The position numbers and the translations under genes are program-made. Source: a virus. Taken from it: a stretch of 41,440 nucleotides of DNA. The notes below the pieces were generated by a model that made no database searches, had not been told where the DNA came from, and worked only from the letters and a program-made list of their open reading frames with translations. The first letter of the stretch is position 1. Each line of letters opens with the position of its first letter. Positions 95-41,440 of this stretch are shown piece by piece. The stretch lies in the IMG/VR virus record IMGVR_UViG_3300002461_000793, positions 1-41,440 of that record. One strand, written 5' to 3'.

Positions 95-395
95 ACCTGG
101 ATTTATCCCAGTCCTTGGTGAACGCCCAGGTCTCTTCTACCGTTGGCGGCAGGATCTTCTTGCCGTACGCCTTCCGCAGAGTCTTGAACTCATCGGCGAA
201 GATCTTCAGCTCCTTCGGCAACGTCGCCACCAGACCCTTGATATACTTCTCAGCCTTCTTGTGTATCTCATCACCACGGGCCATGGCCTCATTGGGAGGC
301 TCCTTGATGCGGTCGATGAACGACAGCTTCGCCTTCAGCGGGCAAAGCTTGTAGGTCGCGTAGCGACTGAAAGACCAGCTGGTCAGCTTCTTCAT
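1..395 (-). CDS. PD-(D/E)XK Cas4/RecB-like exonuclease, N-terminal part. The gene wraps the window ends and continues at 41346..41031, about 236 aa in total.
   Basis: ATG at 395..393 overlaps the polymerase stop (ATGA). My translation is MKKLTSWSFSRYATYKLCPLKAKL...WVRIKIDCAHHVEDDVLLVSDWKTG. It runs in frame into the ORF 41031..41417 through the 94-nt duplication. Confidence 0.75.
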   Translation of the reverse strand, partial: MKKLTSWSFSRYATYKLCPLKAKLSFIDRIKEPPNEAMARGDEIHKKAEKYIKGLVATLPKELKIFADEFKTLRKAYGKKILPPTVEETWAFTKDWDKSRWDDWVNCWVRIKIDCAHHVEDDVLLVSDWKT

Positions 396-2317
396 TTGAT
401 CACCTTACCCTTCTTGTCGTAGTCCTTCAGTTCGTTCCAATTGGTAGTTGACACCGCGCCTTCGCTGAGGATCGGTACGTCAAATTCCACGCTTTCCATC
501 GTCTTACGCATCACCTCCATCTCGTCCTGCCACCCAACCCTGTTAGTGGATGCCGTCAGCTGGTCGTGCACGTTGAGAAGAATTCTGGTGGTCGGCTTCT
601 TAGCTGCGTGGAAGCGGATGATCGCCTCCTTGGTGCAGTCGGCACCAGACCCTTGAATGAGGGTGTTGACCAGCTTGTAGTCAAACGTTCTCATGCGACC
701 TTCCACCAGCTTAGGCGGCTCGCAGTAGTACTCGCGCCCTCCCCACGTGCGAATCGGCTTGTTCTCCTTGGCGACAAGCTTCATGTCGCTGTACATGTCC
801 TTCAGGCCTGGGTAGAGATCCAGGATGGCCTTCTTCAAGGCCTTCGACTCGTCAACCGGCATGTCATTCTTCATCGCCAGCTTAGCCACGCCCATCCCGT
901 AGATCAGCCCGAGGTTCGTGTTCTTCACCGGCTTGCGATCGTAGATCTTTCCTACGTTGGCCAGCTCGTCTCTCGCGTTGTCGTGGAAGTCAATCCAAGG
1001 GTTCTCAAGGTACTTGTCCATGAGGGCCCCACCCTCAAAGTGAGCCAAGATGCGAGGCTCCTGCTGAGAGTAGTCGCGGTCGATAAGGATCTGACCTGGG
1101 AACGCTGTGATGTACGACCTGACCATGGGCAGCGGCGGTAGCTTGATTGGCGGCTTTGGCAACCCAGAAGACAGGTACCTGGGAACTTCGACAAAGATGG
1201 GTTTGAACTCGTTGGCGATGTTCTGGAAGTTGGGCGTGCTGGAAAGCCTGCCCGTTCTGGTCCCAATGGTATGATCGCCAGACGGCGACTTCACCTGGTT
1301 CCACGTGGTGAAGATCAAGCCGCCAGACAACTCGGCCATCTTCAACCACGGTATCATGAACGTGTCCAGACAGGTGGCCAGCTGGGCTCTGTACTTCAGC
1401 ATCCCCAGCATCACCTTGTCGGTGACCGCCCCCATCAAGGCTTCTTTGTTGGTCTGGTACTTGCCAGAAGCCGTCAACGGCAGAAGATCCAGATCCACCT
1501 TCTTCACCCTGACCAAGGCCTCAATCAGCTGCTCGCCTGAATTCAGGTTGATGTCAGGAGACGCCTTGAGCTGCTTGATGATCCATGCATCAACGCTATG
1601 GCGAGTCTCTGAGTACATGGCCACGTCAGACCGCAGCCGCTTGAGATCCACCGGCACTCCTTGTCTCTCCATCTCAAGCAAGATGGGCATGAGCTGGCGC
1701 TCTCGGTCGTACGCCGCGTCCATACCCCTGGCCGAGATGCTGGGCCTGAGAAGCTTGAAGATCTCGTCGGTCCTGATCACGTCACCGTCGGCATAGTCTC
1801 CAACCAGGTCCCCAGGGGCATAGGCGATGTACCGGCCAAAGTAGTGGTCTGAGTTCTTGGCCTTGCTGATCTTCACCCCAGGTACAGGCTGGTTGCTCAC
1901 CAACCAGTCAGCCACCGCGTCCTGCTCATCTGGCGGCATACCGAGCAACCGCTCAGCTGCCGGCTTCAGACCCAGCTCCATCTGGTTGGGATCATCCAGA
2001 AAGATCAGGAAGAGAGTGTCGTGGATCTTTGTCCAGTGGGGAACAGGCAGCCCCATGTGCACGTCGGCCACGTCCACATCAAACTTGCCATTCTGAAAGA
2101 GGACACCGTCAGGATTCTCATAGGCCTTCCTGACAGCTTCCCGAGCTTCCCCAAATTGGCAGTTGTTCCCAGTCGGGTGGCCAAACGCATAGTACCTCGG
2201 CTTCTTCCCAGGGTACTTGATCGAGACACCGACCGGGTGCGGAGGATAGAAAGGCCGTGACTCGATCCCAAGCGTCTCAAAGTCGATGACGACTGGCTTC
2301 TCAACCCTTGATGGCAT
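392..2317 (-). CDS. Family A DNA polymerase with N-terminal 3'-5' exonuclease domain
   Basis: Exo I VIDFETLG; Pol A motif A DYSQQEPRILAH; motif B KNTNLGLIYGMG; motif C LNVHDQL. The start was moved to ATG 2317 (AAGGAG 7 nt upstream). The ORF-track start at 2338 is a GTG. Confidence 0.95.
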   Translation of the reverse strand: MPSRVEKPVVIDFETLGIESRPFYPPHPVGVSIKYPGKKPRYYAFGHPTGNNCQFGEAREAVRKAYENPDGVLFQNGKFDVDVADVHMGLPVPHWTKIHDTLFLIFLDDPNQMELGLKPAAERLLGMPPDEQDAVADWLVSNQPVPGVKISKAKNSDHYFGRYIAYAPGDLVGDYADGDVIRTDEIFKLLRPSISARGMDAAYDRERQLMPILLEMERQGVPVDLKRLRSDVAMYSETRHSVDAWIIKQLKASPDINLNSGEQLIEALVRVKKVDLDLLPLTASGKYQTNKEALMGAVTDKVMLGMLKYRAQLATCLDTFMIPWLKMAELSGGLIFTTWNQVKSPSGDHTIGTRTGRLSSTPNFQNIANEFKPIFVEVPRYLSSGLPKPPIKLPPLPMVRSYITAFPGQILIDRDYSQQEPRILAHFEGGALMDKYLENPWIDFHDNARDELANVGKIYDRKPVKNTNLGLIYGMGVAKLAMKNDMPVDESKALKKAILDLYPGLKDMYSDMKLVAKENKPIRTWGGREYYCEPPKLVEGRMRTFDYKLVNTLIQGSGADCTKEAIIRFHAAKKPTTRILLNVHDQLTASTNRVGWQDEMEVMRKTMESVEFDVPILSEGAVSTTNWNELKDYDKKGKVIK

Positions 2318-2495
2318 TGCCGATCTCCTTCCGTTCACGAGCAGCCCTGACCCTATTGAGTCGACTATGGATCCTCAGCGCGAACACCTTCCTCTTCGGC
2401 CCATCCAGCTCTACCTTGAGAAGCTGCTCACATGTCTTCTCGTCAGCCAATCTGATGATCTCGTTCAATTCCACCCATGTGCGAATTGGTTTCAC
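2301..2495 (-). CDS. Hypothetical protein (64 aa)
   Basis: GTG start with GGAGAAG 5 nt upstream, same strand as its neighbours, and a 17-nt overlap with the polymerase start. Confidence 0.5.
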   Translation of the reverse strand: MKPIRTWVELNEIIRLADEKTCEQLLKVELDGPKRKVFALRIHSRLNRVRAARERKEIGNAIKG

Positions 2496-5017: not shown

Positions 5018-6004
5018 TCACACCAGAGCCAGAGCTCGTTCCAGGGCTTGGGTCTTCAGGCCGTCGCCGCGACCGAACCAGGCCGAATCCATCCGGTGGC
5101 TGGCAGTCGACGCGCGAGCGTGATGGTCGACGAACTCAGTCACCGCATTCACTACGCCCCAGGCAGTACCCTCGGTGCCGGCCAAGGTGCCGCCCATCGC
5201 AGAGCTACCGAACAGATCCATGATCTTCTGGAACTGCTTGGACTTCCGAACGTCTTCACCCAGGACCGTCTTCGTCTCGGTCAGGAGAGTCGCCACGAAC
5301 TCCGAGGCACGTTCCTGCGCCATCGAGACCGAAGCCAACTGGCGGGCAGACTTCATGAAGGTACCGAAGTTGTCGCGGGCGAGACCGAGTTGCTGCTTGA
5401 CGGACTCAGCGTCGAAGTGGCTCGTGTGGCGGATGCTGACTTCGCGCTTGGCCTTACCAGACAGAGCCATGCTGAGGGTGTTGTTGCACACCACGCGGAC
5501 AGTCGTGAAGCGAGCCGTGGTGGGCATAGTGCCGTCGCAGCTGCTGCTCAGCAGAAGGTAGCCATCCACCTTGTCCTCACCGACCACAACCGCCGACTCA
5601 CCGATGCTGGCCAGCGCCCAGAACTTCCGACCGCCGAACATGGTACCGGCCGTGTGCAGCTTGTAGCCGTTGCCGTCCACGAGGTCGCGGAAGAACTCCA
5701 GCACTTCCTTCGGCTGGACAACCTTGTACTTGGGGCTGACGATGCCCAGGGAGGCTTTCGTGTCCTCGCGGAACAGCACCAGCTGGTCGTCCATCGTCTC
5801 CATGACCGTGGAAGGATCTGCCAAGTCGCCGGTGGCGTAGCGGACCTTGGAGCGGCGGATGCGCCAGTCCATCCCTGCGGCCACCTGCCACTGCTCGAGG
5901 GTGGCGTCCTGCTCCAGCTCTTGGCCAAGCCCGTGCCACGGCGTTTCGCCGACGTAGGCCATTTCGGTGAAGCCGTTCTTGCGGATCGTGAGTGCGTGCG
6001 ACAT
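5018..6004 (-). CDS. DUF932-like (phage/plasmid-like) protein, 328 aa
   Basis: Trimmed to ATG 6004, which has AGGAG 6 nt upstream. The overall sequence recalls the DUF932/TIGR03299 family (memory based). Confidence 0.75.
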   Translation of the reverse strand: MSHALTIRKNGFTEMAYVGETPWHGLGQELEQDATLEQWQVAAGMDWRIRRSKVRYATGDLADPSTVMETMDDQLVLFREDTKASLGIVSPKYKVVQPKEVLEFFRDLVDGNGYKLHTAGTMFGGRKFWALASIGESAVVVGEDKVDGYLLLSSSCDGTMPTTARFTTVRVVCNNTLSMALSGKAKREVSIRHTSHFDAESVKQQLGLARDNFGTFMKSARQLASVSMAQERASEFVATLLTETKTVLGEDVRKSKQFQKIMDLFGSSAMGGTLAGTEGTAWGVVNAVTEFVDHHARASTASHRMDSAWFGRGDGLKTQALERALALV

Positions 6005-6048
6005 GGTCATCTCCTGGGTTGATGCGGTCGTGCGTTGACCGTGAGTAG

Positions 6049-6090
6049 ATTCTAACCAACCGCCAGGTTCTTGTACACAGTTATTTTCAT
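6049..6090 (-). promoter_or_regulatory. Conserved promoter-like element A
   Basis: Minus strand: TGAAAATAACTGTGTACAAG-N-TAGAAT. TGTACA (6077..6072), a 17-nt spacer and TAGAAT (6054..6049), about 45 nt upstream of ATG 6004. Confidence 0.6.
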
Positions 6091-6323
6091 CGCCGATCAA
6101 AAAATTTTTTCAGGTACTCTCCATTTTCAATGATCCATCTAAGTACGGTTTCGTTAGGAACGTTTTCGTAATTGACGTCGACTATTTGGTTGCCGCTTTC
6201 GTACCACTGGCAAAAATCAAGGTTGGCTTGGTGTGATTCAGCCAACTTGAGTGACGTGAATAGCGTCCCATCCGTAGCCTTGTACGACTGAACCACTTGT
6301 ACCACCGAGATCTTCTTTTTCAT
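6087..6323 (-). CDS. Hypothetical protein (78 aa) in a low-GC island
   Basis: ATG 6323 overlaps the ligase stop (TGATG). This stretch is visibly more AT-rich than its neighbours. Confidence 0.55.
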   Translation of the reverse strand: MKKKISVVQVVQSYKATDGTLFTSLKLAESHQANLDFCQWYESGNQIVDVNYENVPNETVLRWIIENGEYLKKFFDRR

Positions 6324-7860: not shown

Positions 7861-8195
7861 GCTCCCTCCCTTTTCTCAGACTCCCACTCCAAAAGGATGG
7901 CGGCTCCAGCATACACCATAGCCCCCAGCACCTCGTTGACAAACTCCGTTCCGACCTTGGTGGACGCCGCTTCCTCCAGCTTCTTGGCGGCCTGGCCAGT
8001 GAGAAACCCGCGGCCGTGAAGCTTGCCATAGTGGTGCCACGGCTGCTCCATGAAGGGGACGGTGTTGCCTCCGTGCCTCTGCCCCTTGCCGTACATAGCC
8101 TGGTTGATGGCGGCCATGAAGACAGGATACAGCGGGTGGGACGTCATGGCTTCTGTGGCGCCGTTGACGTCTTCAATCTCTTGACTCTTCTGCAT
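7842..8195 (-). CDS. Hypothetical protein (117 aa)
   Basis: Trimmed to ATG 8195, which has GGAGG 6 nt upstream. The motif YGKGQRHGG...FLTGQAAKKLEEA recalls helical phage nucleotide-hydrolase-like proteins. I cannot assign it. Confidence 0.6.
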   Translation of the reverse strand: MQKSQEIEDVNGATEAMTSHPLYPVFMAAINQAMYGKGQRHGGNTVPFMEQPWHHYGKLHGRGFLTGQAAKKLEEAASTKVGTEFVNEVLGAMVYAGAAILLEWESEKREGAWSTLS

Positions 8196-8838
8196 AGAGC
8201 ACCTCCAAAAGAACAGGGTAAGTAGCGAGCAAGACATCTCGGCATTTCTCCGCGATTTCGCGATGCTCCTTCTGCGTACCTGGCTCGCACCGCAGTTGAA
8301 CGTAGTGGATCCAACTCCGCACGGATCCGGCCATGTACATCCTGGAAGGCGTCATGCCCTCAGGCAGAACTGCTCTGGCCACCTCCTTGGCGACCCCAAG
8401 CTCAAGGGCCTGGTTGTAGATGGAGCTGGCGAACGCGGCAACGTCGCGCTGCTTGCGTGTCCACCAGTTGCCCAGCGCTTCGTCGTCATTCTCCAGTGAC
8501 CCCTGTCGGTTCTTGGTGTCTTGTAGCCTTGCCTCCCTCACTTGGTAGGTGTCGGCCACCTTCGAGTAGCGCTGGCTGAACTCCTGAAAGCTGAAGGACC
8601 GGTGGCGAAGGATCTGTCGGGCGATGTCTCTGGTCGTCTCGATGTACATCACCATGTGAGCCATCTCGAACGGCGACCAGTGGTTGTTGCGTGACATGTA
8701 CCCCAGCAACCTTTCTGCCGTGCCGTGGTTGTCCTGGTTCTCGGGGTTGGACACGCGAGCCACGAACGCAATGAACTCGAGTGGGAGCATGTCCGTGGTG
8801 GGGGTAGTCAAGGCCACCAGCTCGACGACCGGCTTCAC
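8173..8838 (-). CDS. thyX: Flavin-dependent thymidylate synthase ThyX
   Basis: ThyX signature RHRSFSFQEFSQRYS (RHRxxSxxxxSxR). Confidence 0.95.
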   Translation of the reverse strand: MKPVVELVALTTPTTDMLPLEFIAFVARVSNPENQDNHGTAERLLGYMSRNNHWSPFEMAHMVMYIETTRDIARQILRHRSFSFQEFSQRYSKVADTYQVREARLQDTKNRQGSLENDDEALGNWWTRKQRDVAAFASSIYNQALELGVAKEVARAVLPEGMTPSRMYMAGSVRSWIHYVQLRCEPGTQKEHREIAEKCRDVLLATYPVLLEVLYAEESRD

Positions 8839-9057: not shown

Positions 9058-9516
9058 TCATCCCCTCCTGCTGGCAAGTTCGTTGGCGATCTGGATCTCG
9101 TCCACCACGGCCCAATCCTCGCTGAGGATATCGGTCTGGCTGGCCAGCCATGGCACCTTGGCGCCGTTGGGGTAGGCCGGATGGTAGAGCGGGTAGACCA
9201 TGTAGATGTAGGGCAGCGTCATGTCTGACTTCGAGTCCGGCTCGCGAAGCCGCAGCCACATGTACTTGCCGTTCCACCCGGACCTTGCCACGGAACGCCC
9301 TGTCTTCAAGGCCTCCAGCGCCAGACCAAAGGTCATCTGGTCGATGGGCATGTAGGTCTCCTCAAAAAGGTCGCCCGGTAACCACGCCTCGTGTCCGTCA
9401 CCGTAGAGAACGCGGTACCCAGGAGTGGCGGTGTCGTTGCTCCCACCCTTGGTGAAGCGAATTTCGCGGTAGGCTGAGACCACCTTGATCCCGATGTACC
9501 TCTTCAACTCAGACAT
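9058..9516 (-). CDS. Two-domain protein: N4 gp49/Sf6 gp66-like N-terminus plus DUF2829 (Tad2-like) C-terminus
   Basis: N-terminal YIGIKVVSAY...GYRVLYGDGHEAWLPGDLFEETY. C-terminal MTFGLALEALKTGRSVARSGWNGKYMWL...PYIYM...VPWLASQTDILSEDWAVV, the classic DUF2829 pattern. Confidence 0.8.
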   Translation of the reverse strand: MSELKRYIGIKVVSAYREIRFTKGGSNDTATPGYRVLYGDGHEAWLPGDLFEETYMPIDQMTFGLALEALKTGRSVARSGWNGKYMWLRLREPDSKSDMTLPYIYMVYPLYHPAYPNGAKVPWLASQTDILSEDWAVVDEIQIANELASRRG

Positions 9517-33364: not shown

Positions 33365-33729
33365 GCCCACTGATTCGAGCCCAGCACAAATTCCTCATCG
33401 ACGTCAGCAAACTCATCATCTGGGCCAACACCAGAGACTGGGTTCTGACCGGAGGAGAGTTGTTCAGAACCGTGGAGCAGCAGCGGATCCACGTCAAGGC
33501 CGGCAGATCCAGAACCATGAACAGTCAGCACGGCATGAGGCTGGCCATTGACTTCAACATCTTTGTTGACGGTCAGCTCTGCTACGACAAGAAAGTGCTG
33601 GCACCGATGGGGGCGTTCTGGGAGAGCATGGATCCACTGAACTCTTGGGGAGGTAATGGGATCAAGCTCGTCGACACCCCTCACTTCTCAAGGGGCATCG
33701 ACAAGCCTGAGTTTCGCAGGGTCACCTAG
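33361..33729 (+). CDS. Endolysin, peptidase M15 (VanY/L-Ala-D-Glu peptidase-like)
   Basis: Trimmed to ATG 33361. Zinc ligands in SQHGMRLAIDF and VDTPHF. Confidence 0.8.
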   Translation: MSPLIRAQHKFLIDVSKLIIWANTRDWVLTGGELFRTVEQQRIHVKAGRSRTMNSQHGMRLAIDFNIFVDGQLCYDKKVLAPMGAFWESMDPLNSWGGNGIKLVDTPHFSRGIDKPEFRRVT

Positions 33730-34184
33730 TCAGGATACTTCTGCCAGAACCGGCCTGCGGTCTGCCACAACTCTCTTGCCGGGTGCGGGTACTCCTCCTT
33801 GAAGATGATGTAGTGGCAGGAGGTGTTCAGGAGAAGCTTCGTGCAGGTCATGCAGGGCGACGTGGTAACGTAGCACGCGGTAATCTGAGAGACATCCCTG
33901 CATTGCAGGAGCGCGTTCTGCTCAGCATGGATCGCCTGGCACATGTCAAGGTTGGTGCCGCTTGGAGATTGAGCTCCTGGACAAGCCCACCGATAATGGT
34001 CGTCGATGACTCCAGGTTCGTTGCAGTGCGCTAGACCAGCGGCCACGCCGTTGTACCCGGTCGACAGGATGTGCCCCTTCTCGTTGATCAGAACCGCCCC
34101 CACCTGACGCCTGAGGCATGTGGACCTCAAAGCGCAGATTTCGGCGATCCTCATCGCCCAGTCGTTGATGTGTATCCTGCTCAT
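33726..34184 (-). CDS. dCMP deaminase
   Basis: HAEQNAL and PCMTCTKLL zinc motifs. ATG 34184 forms an ATGA overlap with the ThyA-like stop. Confidence 0.9.
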   Translation of the reverse strand: MSRIHINDWAMRIAEICALRSTCLRRQVGAVLINEKGHILSTGYNGVAAGLAHCNEPGVIDDHYRWACPGAQSPSGTNLDMCQAIHAEQNALLQCRDVSQITACYVTTSPCMTCTKLLLNTSCHYIIFKEEYPHPARELWQTAGRFWQKYPD

Positions 34185-34975
34185 GCCAGGCTCCACCAGC
34201 GGAGACTGACAGACCCGTCCTTGATCTCTCTGAGGGTCTTGAAAAGCTCGTGCTCGCTCTCCCAGAGAACGTCAGGGGTTTGCGGGTAGCCTTCACCGAT
34301 GGCCTTGTTGTGGTATTCGACGCATCTTCCAGCATCCACCTTGTTGGGCTCGTACAGGTGGCTGTTGGCCATGGTCAGGTAGAGACTACCAGGCTCCACG
34401 GTTTGATCAAACCGGGAATCGTGGTTCAGCCTGCAGCAGACCAGATGCGCCAGCATGCTGAAGTTGAACACATCGTACGGAAAACCCAGCCACGCGTCTG
34501 ACGACCGCATGAACACATGTGCGTTCAGGTAGTTGTCTCTGACAGAGAAGAAGATGCTCACCGTGCACGGAACATCCTTTGTCTCAGGCGGGTTCTCTCG
34601 CCAGATGTTGATGCCGGCCTGACGCGAGTAGGGATCAGCGCAAAGCTTGCTGATAACATAATCCAGCTGCCCAACGATCTTGGGCCCGTACGCGCCGAAG
34701 AAGGTCTGGCCGTCGTCGGAGAAGTTGGCCATCCGACTGTTGTACGGCGCGATTGTCTCCACTCGATCATCACCAGTGAGGATCCAATGCGCCTCGGCCG
34801 CCATGAACCTGTAGTTCAGGCTCCTCAGCTGGTTGACTACCACCGGGTACCGCATGTTCATGACTACGGTATGGTGAAGAAGCTCCGTGCACGAAAAGCC
34901 CCTGGGGCGGGATGGAAGCCCCATCATCAGGATGGTGTTGAGAAGGTTTGCCCACACGTTGTTTGCTGTTCTCAT
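34181..34975 (-). CDS. ThyA-superfamily pyrimidine C5 transferase; predicted dCMP hydroxymethylase-like
   Basis: DVPCTVSIFFSVRDNYLNAHVFMRSSDAWLGFPYDVFNF aligns with T4 gp42 FMCTNTVQYLIRDKKINAVVNMRSNDVVFGFRNDYAW. Both have Cys-Thr, and both have Asp at the position that is Asn177 in ThyA. Confidence 0.8.
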   Translation of the reverse strand: MRTANNVWANLLNTILMMGLPSRPRGFSCTELLHHTVVMNMRYPVVVNQLRSLNYRFMAAEAHWILTGDDRVETIAPYNSRMANFSDDGQTFFGAYGPKIVGQLDYVISKLCADPYSRQAGINIWRENPPETKDVPCTVSIFFSVRDNYLNAHVFMRSSDAWLGFPYDVFNFSMLAHLVCCRLNHDSRFDQTVEPGSLYLTMANSHLYEPNKVDAGRCVEYHNKAIGEGYPQTPDVLWESEHELFKTLREIKDGSVSLRWWSLA

Positions 34976-34984
34976 GATTCTCTC

Positions 34985-35881
34985 CTAGATCATAGATATC
35001 AGTCTGTAAGGCCTGTCGAAGTGGAATCTCTTCCACGCCTGCGGGTGCGGCACCAGATCATGCTTGACCATCCTCTCAGTCAGCCTAGAGGAGGCGACAC
35101 GGCCCAGAGCGATGATGCGTCGAGTGCTGCCGTCGCCCAGCATCGACAGATCTTGATCCGAGTTCACCCAGAGAAGATCTTGCTCCTTCACGTTGGCAGA
35201 GGCCAGTTGCCTGGTGAGCCACCTGCTGCAACCAGCGTCGCCAAACGAGGCAAACGGCCACTGGTAGAAGGTGTCGTTGTCCTTGTGGTGTGCAAACTCG
35301 TCACCTACAAGAACCACGTTGGCCGCCAGGTTGCCAGCCGACCTGGTATGAAGAGGATGGCACGACCAGGATACCGCCGACAGTAGGTCTCCGTCCAACT
35401 CGCCTGTCTCGTAATCGTACAGCATCGTGGGAAGTTCTGACTTCACCTCGGCGTTGTAGATGTCGTAGACCTTAGACAGCTGAATGTCGTCATCCAGCAT
35501 CTCAGTGGCTCGCCTTGCCATGAAGTTGGCAATGCACACCTCCTTGTCAGGCAGGCACAACACCACCGAGGCCCCGCATCTCATGGCCAACCTCTCCAAC
35601 ATCCTGACGTCTGCCGGATCCAGCCTGTTGGCGCCACCACGGAACACGCGGCCGTAGGGAATCTCCGACAACCAGCATCGGTCAAGGACCACGTCCTGAT
35701 AGCCCATGAGAGCAGGCAGCATGGCCTCTACGTACATCCTGGCCAGCCCGAACGTAACACGCGGCATGGCTGGGAAGTGCACGTAGAGGGCGTTGTGCTT
35801 TACCCTCAGCTGATGGGCCAGTGTGGTCTTGCCAGCTCCATCAGGTCCTTCCACGATGTAGACTCTCTTGCAGGTCTCCAT
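34985..35881 (-). CDS. dNMP (thymidylate-like) kinase fused to a UDG-superfamily domain
   Basis: P-loop EGPDGAGKTTLA and DR motif VVLDRCWLSEIPYG. The C-terminal part, VVLVGDEFAHH..WPF..GDAGCSRWL..LLWVN..RIIALGRVA..VPHPQAW, follows family 4 UDG motif order (GEAPG..PF..G.AG..L..N..LG..HPS). Confidence 0.8.
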   Translation of the reverse strand: METCKRVYIVEGPDGAGKTTLAHQLRVKHNALYVHFPAMPRVTFGLARMYVEAMLPALMGYQDVVLDRCWLSEIPYGRVFRGGANRLDPADVRMLERLAMRCGASVVLCLPDKEVCIANFMARRATEMLDDDIQLSKVYDIYNAEVKSELPTMLYDYETGELDGDLLSAVSWSCHPLHTRSAGNLAANVVLVGDEFAHHKDNDTFYQWPFASFGDAGCSRWLTRQLASANVKEQDLLWVNSDQDLSMLGDGSTRRIIALGRVASSRLTERMVKHDLVPHPQAWKRFHFDRPYRLISMI

Positions 35882-35883
35882 GG

Positions 35884-36282
35884 CTACTCTCCAAGGATCT
35901 GGCGGATCTTGTGCTCAGGAGGAACGAAGCCCGGAGGCTTGACCACGTCAAACGAGGAACCTCGCTTCGAGGCATCGGCACTGGGCGTTCGCATCTTGCT
36001 CATGTTGGCGTTGTGCACCGCTGCAAACGCCTCATTCCACTGACCTGGGAAGACCCCCATGAAGAGAGCCGTCCCCATGGCGACGTAGGTCAGGTCAATG
36101 AGGGCATCGAGGGCCTTCACCTTGTCTCCAGCTTCGCAGGCTTCCTTGAACTCGGCCAGCTCCTCTTCGAGGAACCCAGTCCTGTACTTAAGAACCTCAG
36201 GATCGGAGAACAGAAGGTTGTCGTGGCCCAGAGGAAGGCAGAAAACCAAGTGAAACTCGTACACCTTGTCCATCTCAGTCAT
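35884..36282 (-). CDS. All-alpha MazG/HisE-like NTP pyrophosphohydrolase
   Basis: FLEEELAEFKEA...ALDALIDLTYVAMG...VHNANMSK (EExxE...D metal motif). ATG 36282 forms an ATGA overlap with the methyltransferase stop. Confidence 0.8.
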   Translation of the reverse strand: MTEMDKVYEFHLVFCLPLGHDNLLFSDPEVLKYRTGFLEEELAEFKEACEAGDKVKALDALIDLTYVAMGTALFMGVFPGQWNEAFAAVHNANMSKMRTPSADASKRGSSFDVVKPPGFVPPEHKIRQILGE

Positions 36283-37040
36283 TTCAGTCTCCTGCAAACC
36301 CAGAGATTGTTCCTGGAGTGGTCGGGGTACAACGGAGCGAAGATGCAGCTGATCGCGTCGTTGTCATAGTACTTGGCCAGTCGGTCCTTCACGGCTTTGA
36401 TGGCGGTCTCAATCTCCAAGTTATCATAGACCTTTCCAATGTGCTTGATGTCCATGAAGGTGCCGTGCCGCTGCTCCACCGTAAGCCCAGCCTTGAGCAC
36501 CGCCTTGTACAACTCATCCACCGTGTACTCGTGGATGTGGTTGGCGGCGTGGCGCTTGCCGTCGTAGCACGGGGTGGACATGAGCATGATACCACCAGGC
36601 TTCAGGCAGTTGAAGCAGGCCTTTAGCAACTTGGCACCGTGTTCCACCTTCATGTGCTCGATGACTTCATAGTGGACCACCACGTCGAAGCCCTTGGCGT
36701 TGTCTCCAGTCAGAAGATTCTTCCAGTTCTCGACGAAGTTGAACTCACCGTGGAACGTCAGGCGCTGGCTGTTGGAGGGCTTCAGCTTATTCAGATCCAC
36801 CCCGGTGTAGTGGCCAACGTGCGGAGCAGCGCCACCGGTCAGGATCTTGCTGAGAGGCCTGTCTTCGCCGCAGCCGATCTCCAGGACATTGTCCTTGGCG
36901 GTGATGAACCGGCGGGCGAAGCTCCAGCGGAAGAAATGGGCGGAGTAGTCCCGGTGCAGGGTACGCCCATGACCTGCCTCCCTCAGTTGAGTGGTGTCGT
37001 ATTCGCGAACGTCGCGTTGAACCTCACGTGTCTTTGGCAT
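36279..37040 (-). CDS. Class I SAM-dependent methyltransferase fold (small-molecule/O-MTase-like, not a classical DNA MTase)
   Basis: Motif I VLEIGCGEDRP preceded by HRDYSAHFFRWSFARRF. Post-motif GGIMLMSTP. No DPPY/NPPY or PCQ/ENV motifs. Confidence 0.85.
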   Translation of the reverse strand: MPKTREVQRDVREYDTTQLREAGHGRTLHRDYSAHFFRWSFARRFITAKDNVLEIGCGEDRPLSKILTGGAAPHVGHYTGVDLNKLKPSNSQRLTFHGEFNFVENWKNLLTGDNAKGFDVVVHYEVIEHMKVEHGAKLLKACFNCLKPGGIMLMSTPCYDGKRHAANHIHEYTVDELYKAVLKAGLTVEQRHGTFMDIKHIGKVYDNLEIETAIKAVKDRLAKYYDNDAISCIFAPLYPDHSRNNLWVCRRLK

Positions 37041-37053
37041 CGTAGTGTCCTCC

Positions 37054-37677
37054 TTAGGCCTTGGCTTCGGGAGGGTTCTTGCCCATCTTCTTCAGATGGT
37101 TGCGGTACCACTTGACGTAACCCTTCTTCTTGTCATCGAGGCCGAACTTCTCCTGGACCTTGGCGAAGATCTGGTCATCGGTCAGCTTGCCGGCCATGAT
37201 CAGGTCTTGGAACATCTGGGCAGCGGTGTCACGAGGCGCCTTGGTCTGGTTGTCGGACTTGGGCTGCTTGGCTGCCGGCTTCTCCTTGACTTCCTTCTTG
37301 GCCGGCGCGGGCTTCTTGGACGCCGTCTTGCTGGAGGCCTTCTTCTCTTCGGCCGCTTTGGCCACGTCCTTCTTCTTTGCAACTGCCATGTCAATCTCCT
37401 TCTGACTCAGTTTAACTACGGATGAAAGAAAGCCGATGGCTTCCTCTGTGGCACCGATGGTTCTGGCGTACGAAGCGTAGAGCTCTGCCGCCTTCTCGAT
37501 CGGGTACTCGAGCATCGGTCGATACCGACTGTCGAATTCTTCAACGGGCATTGATAGTACCACGAGGCCACTCTCAATGTCCAAAGGGATGTACTTCACG
37601 TCGTCAGACCTGTCTACCGCGATGCAGGTCCTGCGCTCCCTGTCCATACAGGGGATGGGGTTCCACTTCTTCACCAC
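37054..37677 (-). CDS. Lysine/alanine-rich (H1-like linker) protein with a conserved C-terminal domain (207 aa)
   Basis: AKKKDVAKAAEEKKASSKTASKKPAPAKKEVKEKPAAKQPK. The C-terminus MFQDLIMAGKLTDDQIFAKVQEKFGLDDKKKGYVKWYRNHLKKMG is paralogous to the end of the 37891..38358 protein. GTG start with GGGAGAG upstream. Confidence 0.65.
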   Translation of the reverse strand: MVKKWNPIPCMDRERRTCIAVDRSDDVKYIPLDIESGLVVLSMPVEEFDSRYRPMLEYPIEKAAELYASYARTIGATEEAIGFLSSVVKLSQKEIDMAVAKKKDVAKAAEEKKASSKTASKKPAPAKKEVKEKPAAKQPKSDNQTKAPRDTAAQMFQDLIMAGKLTDDQIFAKVQEKFGLDDKKKGYVKWYRNHLKKMGKNPPEAKA

Positions 37678-37898
37678 TCTGACTCTCCCGATAGTTGGTC
37701 GGCGATGACAGACAGGTCCAACAGGCCCTGCATCAAGGCCTTACCGTGGTCCGGCCAGTAGGTAGGCCCGTAGATCTGCCAGTTGATTTCAACCAAACCG
37801 CCCTTCTTGGTAACTCGGCCCTTGGGCTCACCATCCACTAGTAGCTGAAAGATGGCGACCCCATCGCGGCTAAGATCCTCAATCTGGATCTCAGCCAT
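37671..37898 (-). CDS. Hypothetical protein (75 aa)
   Basis: The ATG overlaps the upstream gene end by 8 nt. Same-strand coupling. Confidence 0.5.
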   Translation of the reverse strand: MAEIQIEDLSRDGVAIFQLLVDGEPKGRVTKKGGLVEINWQIYGPTYWPDHGKALMQGLLDLSVIADQLSGESEW

Positions 37899-38358
37899 TG
37901 GCCGACCCCTGGCGCTTCAGGAAGCCGCGGTACCAGGCGGGGTAGCCGCGCTTCTTGTTGTCCTGAAGGTTGAACTTCTCCTTGATGTGCTCCCAGATCT
38001 CCTTGTTGGTCTTGCCGGCAAGGATCATGGACTTGCAGATCTCGCCGATGCCTTCGCACGAGCGCACGGTCTTGTTCCGGGGACGGTCGTAGTTGCGGCC
38101 ACCGCCGGCGGACTTCTTCTCTTGCGCTTGGCCAGCCAGCGTGAGCAAGTCGTCGAAGGTGCCGACCACCTTCTTGGTAGCAGGCGCTTGGAGAGAGGCC
38201 AGGTGGGCCTCGGCGCGCGCGACTTGGCACGCGAAGGTACCATCAGTCAGCTTCTCGATAAAGAAGTTGTAGTCACGGGGCTTGATCCCGATCTTGCGCA
38301 GCACGGAGGTGGCAGAGTCGCGGGACTTGAAGATACGGACGGCGTCAGCAGATTTCAT
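37891..38358 (-). CDS. Basic protein sharing a C-terminal domain with the 37054..37677 protein (155 aa)
   Basis: Trimmed to ATG 38358 (GCTGAGGGT upstream). C-terminus: ICKSMILAGKTNKEIWEHIKEKFNLQDNKKRGYPAWYRGFLKRQG. Confidence 0.65.
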   Translation of the reverse strand: MKSADAVRIFKSRDSATSVLRKIGIKPRDYNFFIEKLTDGTFACQVARAEAHLASLQAPATKKVVGTFDDLLTLAGQAQEKKSAGGGRNYDRPRNKTVRSCEGIGEICKSMILAGKTNKEIWEHIKEKFNLQDNKKRGYPAWYRGFLKRQGSANG

Positions 38359-38394
38359 TTGGTTACCCTCAGCAAGGTAGTTGATTACGGGGTC

Positions 38395-38440
38395 ATTGTA
38401 GTGTGCAATGATCCCGTCGTACACAGTTACGCAACAACAT
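38395..38440 (-). promoter_or_regulatory. Conserved promoter-like element D
   Basis: Minus strand: GCGTAACTGTGTACGAC-N-TACAAT. TGTACG (38423..38418), a 17-nt spacer and TACAAT (38400..38395). It shares TAACTGTGTAC with element A. Confidence 0.55.
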
Positions 38441-40219: not shown

Positions 40220-40460
40220 TGTCGTGAACCTCCACCTCATATCCCAGCGATGTTAGGAACTCATGGATCTCTTTCTGCTTTGGCCGCGGGAGTTCGCCAA
40301 GCCTCTTGAATTCTACCAAGAACGGACTCCCATTAGGGAGCCAAAATATCCTGTCAGGGAATCCGTTCTCAAAAAACCTGACCTTTGAATTCTTCACGCC
40401 GAGATGCTTCCAACAAAGATAGCAGGTTGTCTCTTCAACGTAGGCTTCCTTGTGCTTCAC
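40071..40460 (-). CDS. VRR-NUC nuclease
   Basis: GFPDRIFWLPNGSPFLVEFKRLG (D...ExK). GTG start in a GTGA overlap with the exonuclease stop. The Arg-rich C-terminal ~50 aa overlap the SNF2 start in another frame. Confidence 0.75.
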   Translation of the reverse strand: MKHKEAYVEETTCYLCWKHLGVKNSKVRFFENGFPDRIFWLPNGSPFLVEFKRLGELPRPKQKEIHEFLTSLGYEVEVHDNVADAFQAVIEACRRRLAVGARRVPKESNEVLDRASRVCALLRSRSGKD

Positions 40461-41023
40461 GGAGTCGGCTTGAAGCCCGCAAAGATCTTGCTGGCCACCT
40501 GCGCCTGATAGATGGCGTCATCCAGAGCGTTGTGGTGGGTGCCTTCCCTCTTGATGTCTGCTCCTATGTCGGGGTGTAGCGCCTTCAAGGTGCGGAAGCA
40601 CCGGTTGCGGTAGAACTTCCACGCTGGCGTGATACCGCAGGCCTTGTAAGCCGCCGCCAGAATGGTGTTGTCGAAGTCAGAGCCGTTGCCCCACAATTTG
40701 ACGGCGTGGAACTTGTTGAGGTACTCGTTGAAATCAGTGAGAGCCGTGTAGATGCTGACCCCTCCTTCTGTCGCCTCAATCAATGCTTCTCGCGCGTCCA
40801 ACGACTGGCGACCCCACCAGGCGAGAGTGTCGCTGTCTTCTTCCAGACCCACTGTGCGGCACGAGTTCCTGTCCACCACCACGTAGAAGCTTTCCTTGCT
40901 CACCTCGCTTGAGGTGAAGGCTACAGCTCCTATGGAGACGATGCCGCAACCAGCGGCAGTGCCGTACGTCTCCAGGTCCACCATCACGTTGCCGATATCA
41001 TACACCGTCATCAGTTTTTCCAT
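40457..41023 (-). CDS. DEDDh (DnaQ-like) 3'-5' exonuclease
   Basis: Exo I MVDLETYG, Exo II NGSDFD, Exo III HHNALDDA. Confidence 0.85.
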   Translation of the reverse strand: MEKLMTVYDIGNVMVDLETYGTAAGCGIVSIGAVAFTSSEVSKESFYVVVDRNSCRTVGLEEDSDTLAWWGRQSLDAREALIEATEGGVSIYTALTDFNEYLNKFHAVKLWGNGSDFDNTILAAAYKACGITPAWKFYRNRCFRTLKALHPDIGADIKREGTHHNALDDAIYQAQVASKIFAGFKPTP

Positions 41024-41030
41024 GCTCGCC

Positions 41031-41440
41031 TCAGTATTTGCACTGGCCGCCGCCGGCAGCCTTGTTGGACGCCCGGTAGAAACACCACTGGCACTTCGTG
41101 TTTGGCGTCGGCTTGAACGAAGTGTCCTTCATCATCTTACGAACCCGAAGATCCCACGTCTTCTTGAGGCGGACCAAGTCTTCTCTGGTGTAGGAGAAGT
41201 AGCCGCGCAGCGGATGCACAACGCCGTAGTCGACGTAGACGAGTCTGGTCCGAACCTCCTTGATGTGCGAGTACAGAAGCAGGGCCGCCAAGGCGTACAA
41301 CTCCAACTGCTCCTCGTAGTCGGACACCATGTCATCCCTGTACTTGCCAGTCTTCCAGTCGGACACCAGCAGCACGTCGTCCTCAACATGATGGGCGCAG
41401 TCGATCTTGATCCGCACCCAGCAGTTGACCCAATCATCCC
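41031..41440 (-). CDS. PD-(D/E)XK Cas4/RecB-like exonuclease, C-terminal part (the last 94 nt duplicate nt 1-94)
   Basis: IDC...VSDWKTGK (D...DxK), QLELYALA (QxxxY), and C-terminal cysteines CQWC...C. Together with Cys18 in the N-terminal part these give a Cas4-type four-Cys pattern. Confidence 0.8.
   Translation of the reverse strand, partial: DDWVNCWVRIKIDCAHHVEDDVLLVSDWKTGKYRDDMVSDYEEQLELYALAALLLYSHIKEVRTRLVYVDYGVVHPLRGYFSYTREDLVRLKKTWDLRVRKMMKDTSFKPTPNTKCQWCFYRASNKAAGGGQCKY
41347..41440. repeat. Second copy of the terminal duplication (identical to nt 1-94)
   Basis: Direct reading, as for the first copy. Confidence 0.95.

Follow-up and report, generated by a model that had tools for sequence, protein, structure and literature searches.

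Homologs of thymidylate synthase (TS) that modify cytosine are an established enzyme class. Replacement of Asn177 by Asp switches ThyA-type enzymes to cytosine nucleotides (eLife 2021), and the TS homologs of cytosine-modified metavirome contigs are best told apart from those of unmodified ones by residues 147 and 177 (MetaGPA; Yang et al., eLife 2021); residue positions such as 143, 147, 169 and 177 follow E. coli ThyA numbering throughout. With regard to the product, hydroxymethylation is associated with an acidic side chain at 143 and methylation with a bulky Leu there, and Asn at 169 marks the flavin-dependent 5-hydroxy-dCMP synthases (NAR 2026). The closest described systems are the hydroxymethylase gp42 of phage T4, the CMP 5-hydroxymethylase MilA of mildiomycin biosynthesis (PDB 5b6d, 5jnh, 5jp9), the dUMP hydroxymethylases SPO1 gp29 and M6 gp58, and the Xp12 TS homolog, which has been shown to be a 5-methyl-dCMP (5mdCMP) synthase (mSCD preprint 2024). 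Here we describe a further homolog, encoded on the minus strand at 34181..34975 of a stretch of viral DNA of 41,440 nucleotides (positions 1 to 41,440 of the IMG/VR record IMGVR_UViG_3300002461_000793), hereafter the window. On the basis of its Pfam PF00303 match, residues and fold, this protein of 264 amino acids is predicted to be a ThyA-family dCMP C5-hydroxymethylase (5-hydroxymethyl-dCMP synthase). Enzymes of this type have been described before, as have the residue signature and the neighbourhood of deaminase and MazG genes, and since the class is established the ThyA signature alone is unsurprising to specialists; the methyltransferase and the fusion of a kinase with a domain resembling uracil-DNA glycosylase (UDG) found beside it are uncharacterised partners.

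The open reading frame (ORF) starts at the ATG at 34975, with the Shine-Dalgarno sequence AGGAGAG ahead of it, and its product matches the Pfam family Thymidylat_synt with an E-value of 4.2e-19 (69.2 bits, cut-off 24.3). The original prediction, a reading of the sequence without database searches, had recognised a ThyA homolog in this ORF, and the string that it quoted, DVPCTVSIFFSVRDNYLNAHVFMRSSDAWLGFPYDVFNF, is present in the protein. The catalytic and nucleotide-binding residues are all there (E. coli ThyA = window: Glu58=E61, Tyr94=Y96, Arg126(')=R118, Cys146=C137, Arg166=R157, Ser167=S158, Asp169=D160, His207=H206, Tyr209=Y208), and the whole set is invariant in 80 of 80 relatives. Other features of canonical ThyA are missing: the alignment has a gap at Trp80, there is no C-terminal lid or tail, and the protein ends in RWW. 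Additionally, it scored 39-52 bits against all of the NCBIfam ThyA equivalog models, for which the cut-offs are 108-405. The protein is therefore not a canonical ThyA.

The fold points in the same direction. A structural model had been suggested in the original prediction as a check, and the AlphaFold (AF2) model, built on 38 homologs (pLDDT 92, pTM 0.91), is closest to the cytidylate hydroxymethylase MilA and not to thymidylate synthases. A fold search of the PDB with this model returned 396 matches at E<=0.001, and the 50 listed all belong to the TS family; the seven best are MilA entries (TMq 0.75-0.80, E ~4e-17), true thymidylate synthases come next with TMq <=0.7, and T4 CH is absent from the best 50 of the 396. 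MilA is also the best PDB match by sequence (E 3e-16, compared with 5e-11 for the first TS). Fold matches in BFVD carried generic names only.

Residues were mapped on a MAFFT alignment with E. coli ThyA, T4 gp42, Xp12 TS and SPO1 gp29, which was repeated with 134 sequences. The T4 gp42, Xp12 TS homolog, SPO1 gp29 and M6 gp58 sequences came from public records, and the E. coli ThyA sequence used alongside them aligned with the family anchors. The stretches that join the diagnostic positions to the invariant anchors (P-C; R-S-x-D-x3-G-x3-[N/D]) are free of gaps, which makes the placement unambiguous, and aligning the protein by HMMER with MilA and the L. casei N229D mutant gave the same register. 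At the three specificity positions the window protein carries Asp134 for Leu143, Thr138 for His147 and Asp168 for Asn177. What had been read by eye was borne out here: the catalytic Cys is followed by Thr as in gp42 (C137-T138 at Cys146-His147), the residue at the ThyA Asn177 position is Asp and not Asn in the proper alignment (D168), the RELEWY region of gp42 aligns with AAEAHW so that Glu58 of E. coli corresponds to E61, and the T4 gp42 string quoted in the original prediction agrees with NC_000866. Furthermore, all 80 relatives from IMG/VR, as well as the phages AXL3 and PW916, carry D143, C146, T147, D169 and D177, so that the signature is not due to chance.

D168 and T138 are the same residues that T4 gp42 has at 177 and 147, and together with the background above they support an enzyme that transfers one carbon to C5 of cytosine nucleotides and not a further dUMP methylase. 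As to the sugar, MilA prefers ribo-CMP because of its Lys133' and Ala176. The window protein has instead the Arg and Ser of the deoxy-specific enzymes (R118, S158), which makes dCMP the most likely substrate. MilA and the window protein have in common the IDVAC / KDVPC motif, Asp143 and Asp177; MilA differs in its ribo-CMP preference, is ~55 residues longer and belongs to bacterial secondary metabolism, not to phage DNA metabolism.

The original prediction had left the product as either hydroxymethyl or methyl and held that sequence could not separate the two. This was too pessimistic, as position 143, the C-terminal tail, Trp80, the linkage to dihydrofolate reductase (DHFR) and the restriction phenotype of AXL3 all lean towards hydroxymethyl. 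A third product class, 5-hydroxy-dCMP (D169N), now exists besides these two and is excluded here since Asp160 is kept at 169. The signature test compared 80 window-family loci, 18 Xp12-family loci and 38 aligned SPO1 gp29-like TS ORFs from IMG/VR, plus the references. Position 143 is Asp in T4 gp42, MilA, SPO1 gp29 and M6 gp58; ThyA has Leu there, and the Xp12 enzyme, a verified 5mdCMP synthase, has Asn. The window family (the 80 loci, AXL3 and PW916) is invariant for D143, T147, D169 and D177, has no Trp80 and ends in RWW. The Xp12 family is just as invariant for N143, P147, D169, D177, Trp80 and a ThyA-like C-terminus of the form ..P.P.V(V/I)x. The SPO1 gp29-like proteins and M6 gp58 show D143, N147, D169 and N177, again with no Trp80 and no ThyA-like tail. 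Going by these residues, the window family is a hydroxymethylase-type scaffold to which the cytosine switch has been added.

The dUMP hydroxymethylases SPO1 gp29 and M6 gp58 (28-29% identity) resemble the window protein in the missing Trp80, Asp143, Gln127 and the missing ThyA tail, and differ from it in Asn177 and Asn147 (uracil substrate) and in a C-terminus ~100 residues longer. M6 gp58 is followed by a 5-hydroxymethyluracil (5hmU) DNA kinase, a glycosylase-like transferase and pyridoxal phosphate (PLP) and radical-SAM enzymes. The Xp12 TS query also drew in 39 more IMG/VR loci (L105-L143), of which the 38 alignable ones are SPO1 gp29-like, presumed dUMP hydroxymethylases with a long C-terminal extension; no MazG, deaminase or methyltransferase neighbours were present in these loci. 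T4 gp42 belongs to the same superfamily as the window protein and agrees with it in the catalytic residues, in D143/T147/D177 and in lacking the ThyA C-terminal lid, but it keeps Trp80, and the two are only ~30% identical over 115 residues (E 5e-8) and do not form an ortholog clade.

For hydride transfer, the active site of ThyA is shut by its C-terminal tail. ThyA-type methylation oxidises tetrahydrofolate (THF) to dihydrofolate, and hydroxymethylation and ThyX do not. The window family was scanned from two anchors (80 TS-anchored and 80 PolA-anchored loci, 160 in total), and DHFR was found in 0/80 of either set and nowhere in the window, which agrees with a hydroxymethylase; of the 18 loci of the Xp12 family, 14 have a DHFR gene after that of the deaminase. 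The residue at 143, the presence of Trp80, the form of the C-terminus and the linkage to DHFR make up a testable rule set separating the window family from the Xp12 methylases. With these lines of evidence taken together we regard the protein as probably a folate-dependent deoxycytidylate C5-hydroxymethylase.

Restriction data from a cultured relative bear on the same question. Stenotrophomonas phage AXL3 has a TS homolog 52% identical to that of the window, the same operon and a ThyX, and its DNA resists 35 of 37 restriction enzymes, being cut only by TasI (AATT) and Tru1I (TTAA). KpnI and AhdI (= Eam1105I) cut Xp12 DNA, which contains 5-methylcytosine (5mC), completely, T4gt DNA, with 5-hydroxymethylcytosine (5hmC), resists both, and glucosylated T4 DNA was not retested with either; XbaI and XmnI (= PdmI) fail on Xp12 and T4 DNA and cut T4gt DNA partially (Flodman et al. 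2020). AXL3 DNA is resistant to each of these enzymes. The 5hmU-containing DNA of SP8 resists only ~8% of enzymes and is cut by ~90% (Flodman et al. 2020), and in the laboratory that digested AXL3 DNA, the DNA of the Xp12-like phage AXL1 was partly cut by KpnI and Eam1105I. Set against these reference tables, the AXL3 profile suggests that its base is unlikely to be 5mC or a thymine derivative and behaves like 5hmC or something bulkier; the literature searched gave no identification of this base. Cytosine replacement likely explains the resistance of AXL3 to 35 of 37 enzymes. 7-Deazaguanine and glycosylation were considered as sources of the phenotype and set aside, no such genes being found among the early-region ORFs of the window; the remaining minus-strand ORFs at 3.7-13.6 kb are all <100 amino acids.

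Several observations weigh against hydroxymethylation, and most of them bear on an alternative in which the enzyme is an Xp12-like 5mdCMP synthase, the DNA carries 5mC and the deaminase turns 5-methyl-dC nucleotides into thymidine nucleotides. The literature searched contained no enzyme assay or nucleoside analysis of any window-family member. The rule for position 143 is correlative and drawn from a small number of verified enzymes, and the Xp12 methylase itself has a polar Asn there and not a bulky hydrophobic residue. The Xp12 enzyme has Asp at 177 like ours, and among verified phage enzymes it is the closest by pairwise BLASTP (30% identity, E 5e-18, compared with E 5e-8 for T4 gp42), so that overall similarity gives the hydroxymethylase class no advantage. 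It was uninformative about the product: BLASTP puts the Xp12 methylase above T4 gp42 and HMMER and Foldseek put MilA first. The arrangement of MazG, TS and deaminase genes, with its tight TS-deaminase adjacency, is also typical of the Xp12 family, and five of the seven deaminase-linked TS homologs tested made 5mdCMP (mSCD preprint 2024). As for AXL3, its DNA was digested briefly, with FastDigest enzymes, and the modification might lie on G instead of C. Lastly, the original prediction had reasoned from a ThyX encoded elsewhere that a second dUMP methylase was needless. The window does encode a flavin-dependent thymidylate synthase of this type, which converts dUMP to dTMP without dihydrofolate (8173..8838, minus strand, Pfam Thy1 E 1.2e-40), and the argument holds for this genome, for AXL3 (gp50) and for PW916 (ORF18). 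For the family it does not hold: ThyX was found in the corresponding region of only 5 of the 29 TS-positive PolA-anchored loci with enough flank, which rules it out as a family-wide partner. A ThyX-anchored scan of IMG/VR was swamped by unrelated ThyX genes, with one contig overlapping, and a scan anchored on the neighbouring 405-aa ORF gave no result. The rarity of ThyX near the TS homolog in relatives weakens the family-wide redundancy argument and is the main contextual point left to the methylase, as dTMP in those relatives could come from deaminating 5-methyl-dC nucleotides. Even so, we consider a methylase unlikely. Asp143 in place of Asn or Leu, Thr147 in place of Pro, and the missing Trp80 and ThyA-like tail are invariant differences from the Xp12 family, DHFR is found in 0/160 loci as against 14/18, AXL3 DNA resists KpnI and Eam1105I, which cut 5mC Xp12 DNA completely and AXL1 DNA partially, and the ThyX of the window genome would be redundant.

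The other alternatives are weaker. That 5-hydroxymethyl-dCMP is only an intermediate, which the deaminase passes on as a 5-hydroxymethyl-dU nucleotide so that the final modification lies at thymine positions, would fit the adjacency of TS homolog and deaminase (79/80 loci), the preference of many phage deaminases of modified contigs for 5-substituted dCTP, which can give 5-hydroxymethyldeoxyuridine (5hmdU) in vivo, and the TasI/MluCI-type AATT cutting of AXL3 DNA, which is compatible with 5hmU. Such a route is nevertheless very unlikely: ~90% of enzymes cut 5hmU DNA and AXL3 resists all 35 with G/C in their sites, ThyX in the window genome, AXL3 and PW916 indicates ordinary dTMP synthesis, 5hmU phages use N177 enzymes directly on dUMP (SPO1 gp29, M6 gp58), and all seven 5hmdU-producing deaminases were linked to predicted methylases (mSCD preprint 2024). 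This last linkage pattern is compatible with a dCMP-specific deaminase in the window operon. A flavin-dependent 5-hydroxy-dCMP synthase of the RB69 gp48 / DLP3 gp80 type, whose phenol-like 5-hydroxyl a UbiG-like methyltransferase would then O-methylate, seems highly improbable, for the diagnostic D169N is absent (Asp160 is invariant in 80/80) and the window has no glycosyltransferase or NDP-sugar genes, even though N177D and an acidic residue at 143 are common to that type and phenolic hydroxyls are typical targets of UbiG-like methyltransferases. An ordinary, redundant thymidylate synthase converting dUMP to dTMP is how AXL3 and many metagenomes annotate the protein, and the database names and the Pfam family would allow it; with Asn177, His147 and Leu143 all replaced, Trp80 and the C-terminal lid missing, the scores far below the NCBIfam equivalog cut-offs and a ThyX already in the genome, it is scarcely credible.

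Five minus-strand genes that overlap or lie close together, with that of the predicted hydroxymethylase in fourth place, encode, in order, a S-adenosylmethionine (SAM)-dependent methyltransferase, a MazG-like protein, the kinase fusion, the TS homolog and a deaminase. The order methyltransferase-MazG-(kinase)-TS-deaminase is kept in AXL3, PW916, MW202621 (Manatee Spring siphovirus) and the 80 IMG/VR loci. The deaminase (33726..34196) is of the dCMP/dCTP type (Pfam dCMP_cyt_deam_1 E 3e-16; PHROG 174 dCMP deaminase E 5e-31) and has the zinc motifs HAE and PCxxC; read from the sequence, its likely start is the ATG at 34184, which overlaps the TS stop codon (ATGA), and the gene adjoins the TS homolog in 79 of the 80 related loci. 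The MazG-like nucleoside triphosphate pyrophosphohydrolase (35884..36297; Pfam PRA-PH E 1e-12, PHROG 671 E 3e-27), a putative dCTPase, is found in 72/80 loci, and 17/18 Xp12-family loci encode a homologous domain upstream of their TS. An Xp12 protein annotated as a HAD hydrolase (L005:14378-16981) includes a stretch resembling MazG that is 47% identical to the MazG-like protein of the window. A family A DNA polymerase, PolA (392..2338, minus strand, Pfam DNA_pol_A E 7e-48), lies in the same minus-strand early region and is syntenic in 56/80 loci; it is presumed to be the enzyme that incorporates the modified dCTP.

From this arrangement we infer a pathway that would work as follows. The operon would be translationally coupled and act like the T4 gp56/gp42/gp1/cd set. 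The MazG-like enzyme would convert dCTP to dCMP, clearing the normal nucleotide and feeding the TS homolog, in which Cys137 would attack C6 of dCMP while Asp168 (for Asn177) and Thr138 (for His147) pair with the N3/N4 face of cytosine. The methylene of 5,10-CH2-THF would then be transferred to C5, and we propose that water, and not the THF hydride, adds to the exocyclic methylene because Asp134 replaces Leu143 and both Trp80 and the ThyA C-terminal lid are missing. The products would be 5-hydroxymethyl-dCMP and unoxidised THF. The P-loop kinase could phosphorylate 5-hydroxymethyl-dCMP to the diphosphate, host NDP kinase (NDK) could make the triphosphate, and the phage PolA could place it in DNA. 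In a side branch, dCMP would be deaminated to dUMP and methylated to dTMP by ThyX, with no dihydrofolate made, and a further step on the modified nucleotide or base is probably catalysed by the SAM methyltransferase.

In T4, too, there is a dCTP-removing pyrophosphatase (gp56), a dedicated kinase (gp1), a dCMP deaminase (cd) and a separate thymidylate synthase (td). However, the T4 dCTPase is dUTPase-type whereas the putative one of the window is MazG-type, T4 uses ThyA (td) and DHFR where the window phage uses ThyX, the window genes are clustered in one operon, unlike those of T4, and the window has a SAM methyltransferase instead of T4-like glucosyltransferases. The Xp12 family (Pamexvirus/Bosavirus) resembles the window in N177D, in a MazG-domain gene upstream and a deaminase downstream, in consisting of siphoviruses of Xanthomonadales with restriction-resistant DNA and in giving the best BLASTP match among verified phage enzymes; besides N143, P147, W80, the ThyA-like tail and DHFR in 14/18 loci, it differs in having no SAM methyltransferase and no kinase-UDG fusion, and Xp12 DNA is cut by KpnI and AhdI and AXL3 DNA is not. 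The TS homologs described with MetaGPA (Yang et al. 2021; mSCD preprint 2024) share the diagnostic 147/177 residues, and their co-localised dCMP deaminase, PRA-PH (MazG) and DNA_pol_A match the window operon exactly. Compared by description, those reports do not mention a linked SAM methyltransferase or a kinase-UDG fusion, and the enzymes assayed were, by description also, mainly Xp12-like methylases or carbamoyltransferase-linked hydroxymethylases.

The first gene of the operon (36279..37040, minus strand) encodes a class I SAM-dependent methyltransferase (Pfam Methyltransf_23 E 2e-15). Its weak profile matches in NCBIfam, PDB sequence and PDB profile searches are to the methyltransferase domain of bacterial Hen1, PEAMT and UbiG, a fold class of small-molecule or ribose O- and N-methyltransferases, and no (D/N/S)PP(Y/F) amino-methyltransferase motif is visible in its sequence. 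No other protein of the module is as conserved: the mean identity of the methyltransferase across loci is 69%, as against 53% for the TS homolog; in the best 120 database matches the identity is 73-93%, with ~120 invariant columns. All 69 methyltransferase-anchored loci contained a D143/T147/D177 TS homolog, and the methyltransferase was present in 58 of the 67 TS-anchored loci with enough flank and in 0/18 of the Xp12 family. Relatives without it are rare. In one of them (L075:3069-6120) the methyltransferase slot holds two ORFs of no known function, of 333 and 380 aa, together with one that weakly matches PLP-dependent enzymes, and in another (L071:8544-9995) a C5 cytosine DNA methylase lies directly upstream of the TS homolog and the methyltransferase is lacking. 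The slot looks like a variable tailoring position.

The kinase fusion is a 298-aa protein (ORF 34985-35881, minus strand) that is kept full-length in most of 736 homologs; a kinase/UDG-like fusion beside a base-modifying enzyme is unusual. Its N-terminal part (aa 1 to ~170, 35372..35881) is a P-loop dNMP/deoxynucleoside-kinase domain (PHROG 761 thymidylate kinase E 1e-18). The best match of this domain in a profile search of the PDB is SPbeta YorR (2axp, E 1e-7), and Foldseek with the fusion retrieved YorR, thymidylate kinases and deoxynucleoside kinases. A role as 5hmC DNA kinase akin to the 5-HMUDK M6 gp54 was unsupported, since hhalign aligned only 26 P-loop columns. The C-terminal ~125 aa (34985..35371) resemble the UDG superfamily (family-4-like) in an hhalign profile comparison, the match to T. 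thermophilus UDG (1UI0) having a probability of 94% and E 1.3e-7 over 106 columns from motif A to motif B. Searches of Pfam, PHROG, PDB sequences and PDB profiles gave no support for a UDG-like domain, and in the fold search with the entire protein most of the signal came from the kinase part. The motifs read VG[DE]xFAxxKDxD..YQWPFASF...ALG...HPQxWKRF, and the Fe-S cysteines are lacking. Motif B (HPQ) is degenerate in the methyltransferase-less relatives L073 (9046-9984), L077, L078 and L069 and intact in about two dozen aligned methyltransferase-positive sequences, which are phylogenetically non-independent. The state of motif B and the methyltransferase may be functionally linked.

A tentative extension of the hydroxymethylase pathway is that the family makes an undescribed cytosine hypermodification, in which 5-hydroxymethyl-dC, as nucleotide or in DNA, could be methylated by the SAM methyltransferase to, e.g., 5-methoxymethylcytosine, with the UDG-like domain perhaps aiding base-flipping or binding. 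Such a modification would explain why the methyltransferase is so conserved and never found without the TS homolog, and why methyltransferase-less relatives have other enzymes in the slot and tend towards a degenerate UDG motif. It would also explain the resistance of AXL3 DNA to XbaI and XmnI (PdmI), which partially cut plain 5hmC DNA. The literature search returned nothing on methoxymethyl cytosine in phages.

Base modifications of phage DNA decide which restriction and nuclease defences are escaped and are a source of enzymes for epigenetic sequencing. In this regard, the gene assigns to the cytosine-replacing phages a large group of siphovirus-like contigs of 36-64 kb, most of them uncultured. 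The group counts at least 2000 protein clusters and more than 400 contigs in IMG/VR and includes the phage-therapy candidates AXL3 (Stenotrophomonas) and PW916 (Pseudoxanthomonas). The methyltransferase and the dNMP-kinase/UDG-like fusion could define a new cytosine hypermodification pathway, for which cultured phages exist.

Other genes of the window were also noted. A 152-aa protein encoded at 9058-9516 (minus strand) has a Thoeris anti-defence 2 (Tad2-like) domain (Pfam PF11195, E 5e-21) and is an anti-defence candidate of the early region. In the replication module, 5018-6100 (minus strand) encodes a DUF932 protein (E 6e-62; PHROG 1221), which is present in some relatives only. Near the window end, a gene for an Rv2179c-like 3'-5' exoribonuclease-family protein (40457-41023, minus strand, E 4e-50) adjoins a fragment of a PD-(D/E)XK (Cas4/RecB-like) nuclease (41031-41417, minus strand). 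As the minus-strand early region appears to run through the junction of the two window ends, the genome seems to be circularly permuted and is probably complete. Finally, two ORFs of 207 and 177 aa (37054-37677 and 37891-38424, both minus strand) have C-terminal matches to the same PHROG, 17205, and are therefore probably paralogs; 66 of the 80 loci have the 207-aa ORF conserved immediately upstream of the methyltransferase.

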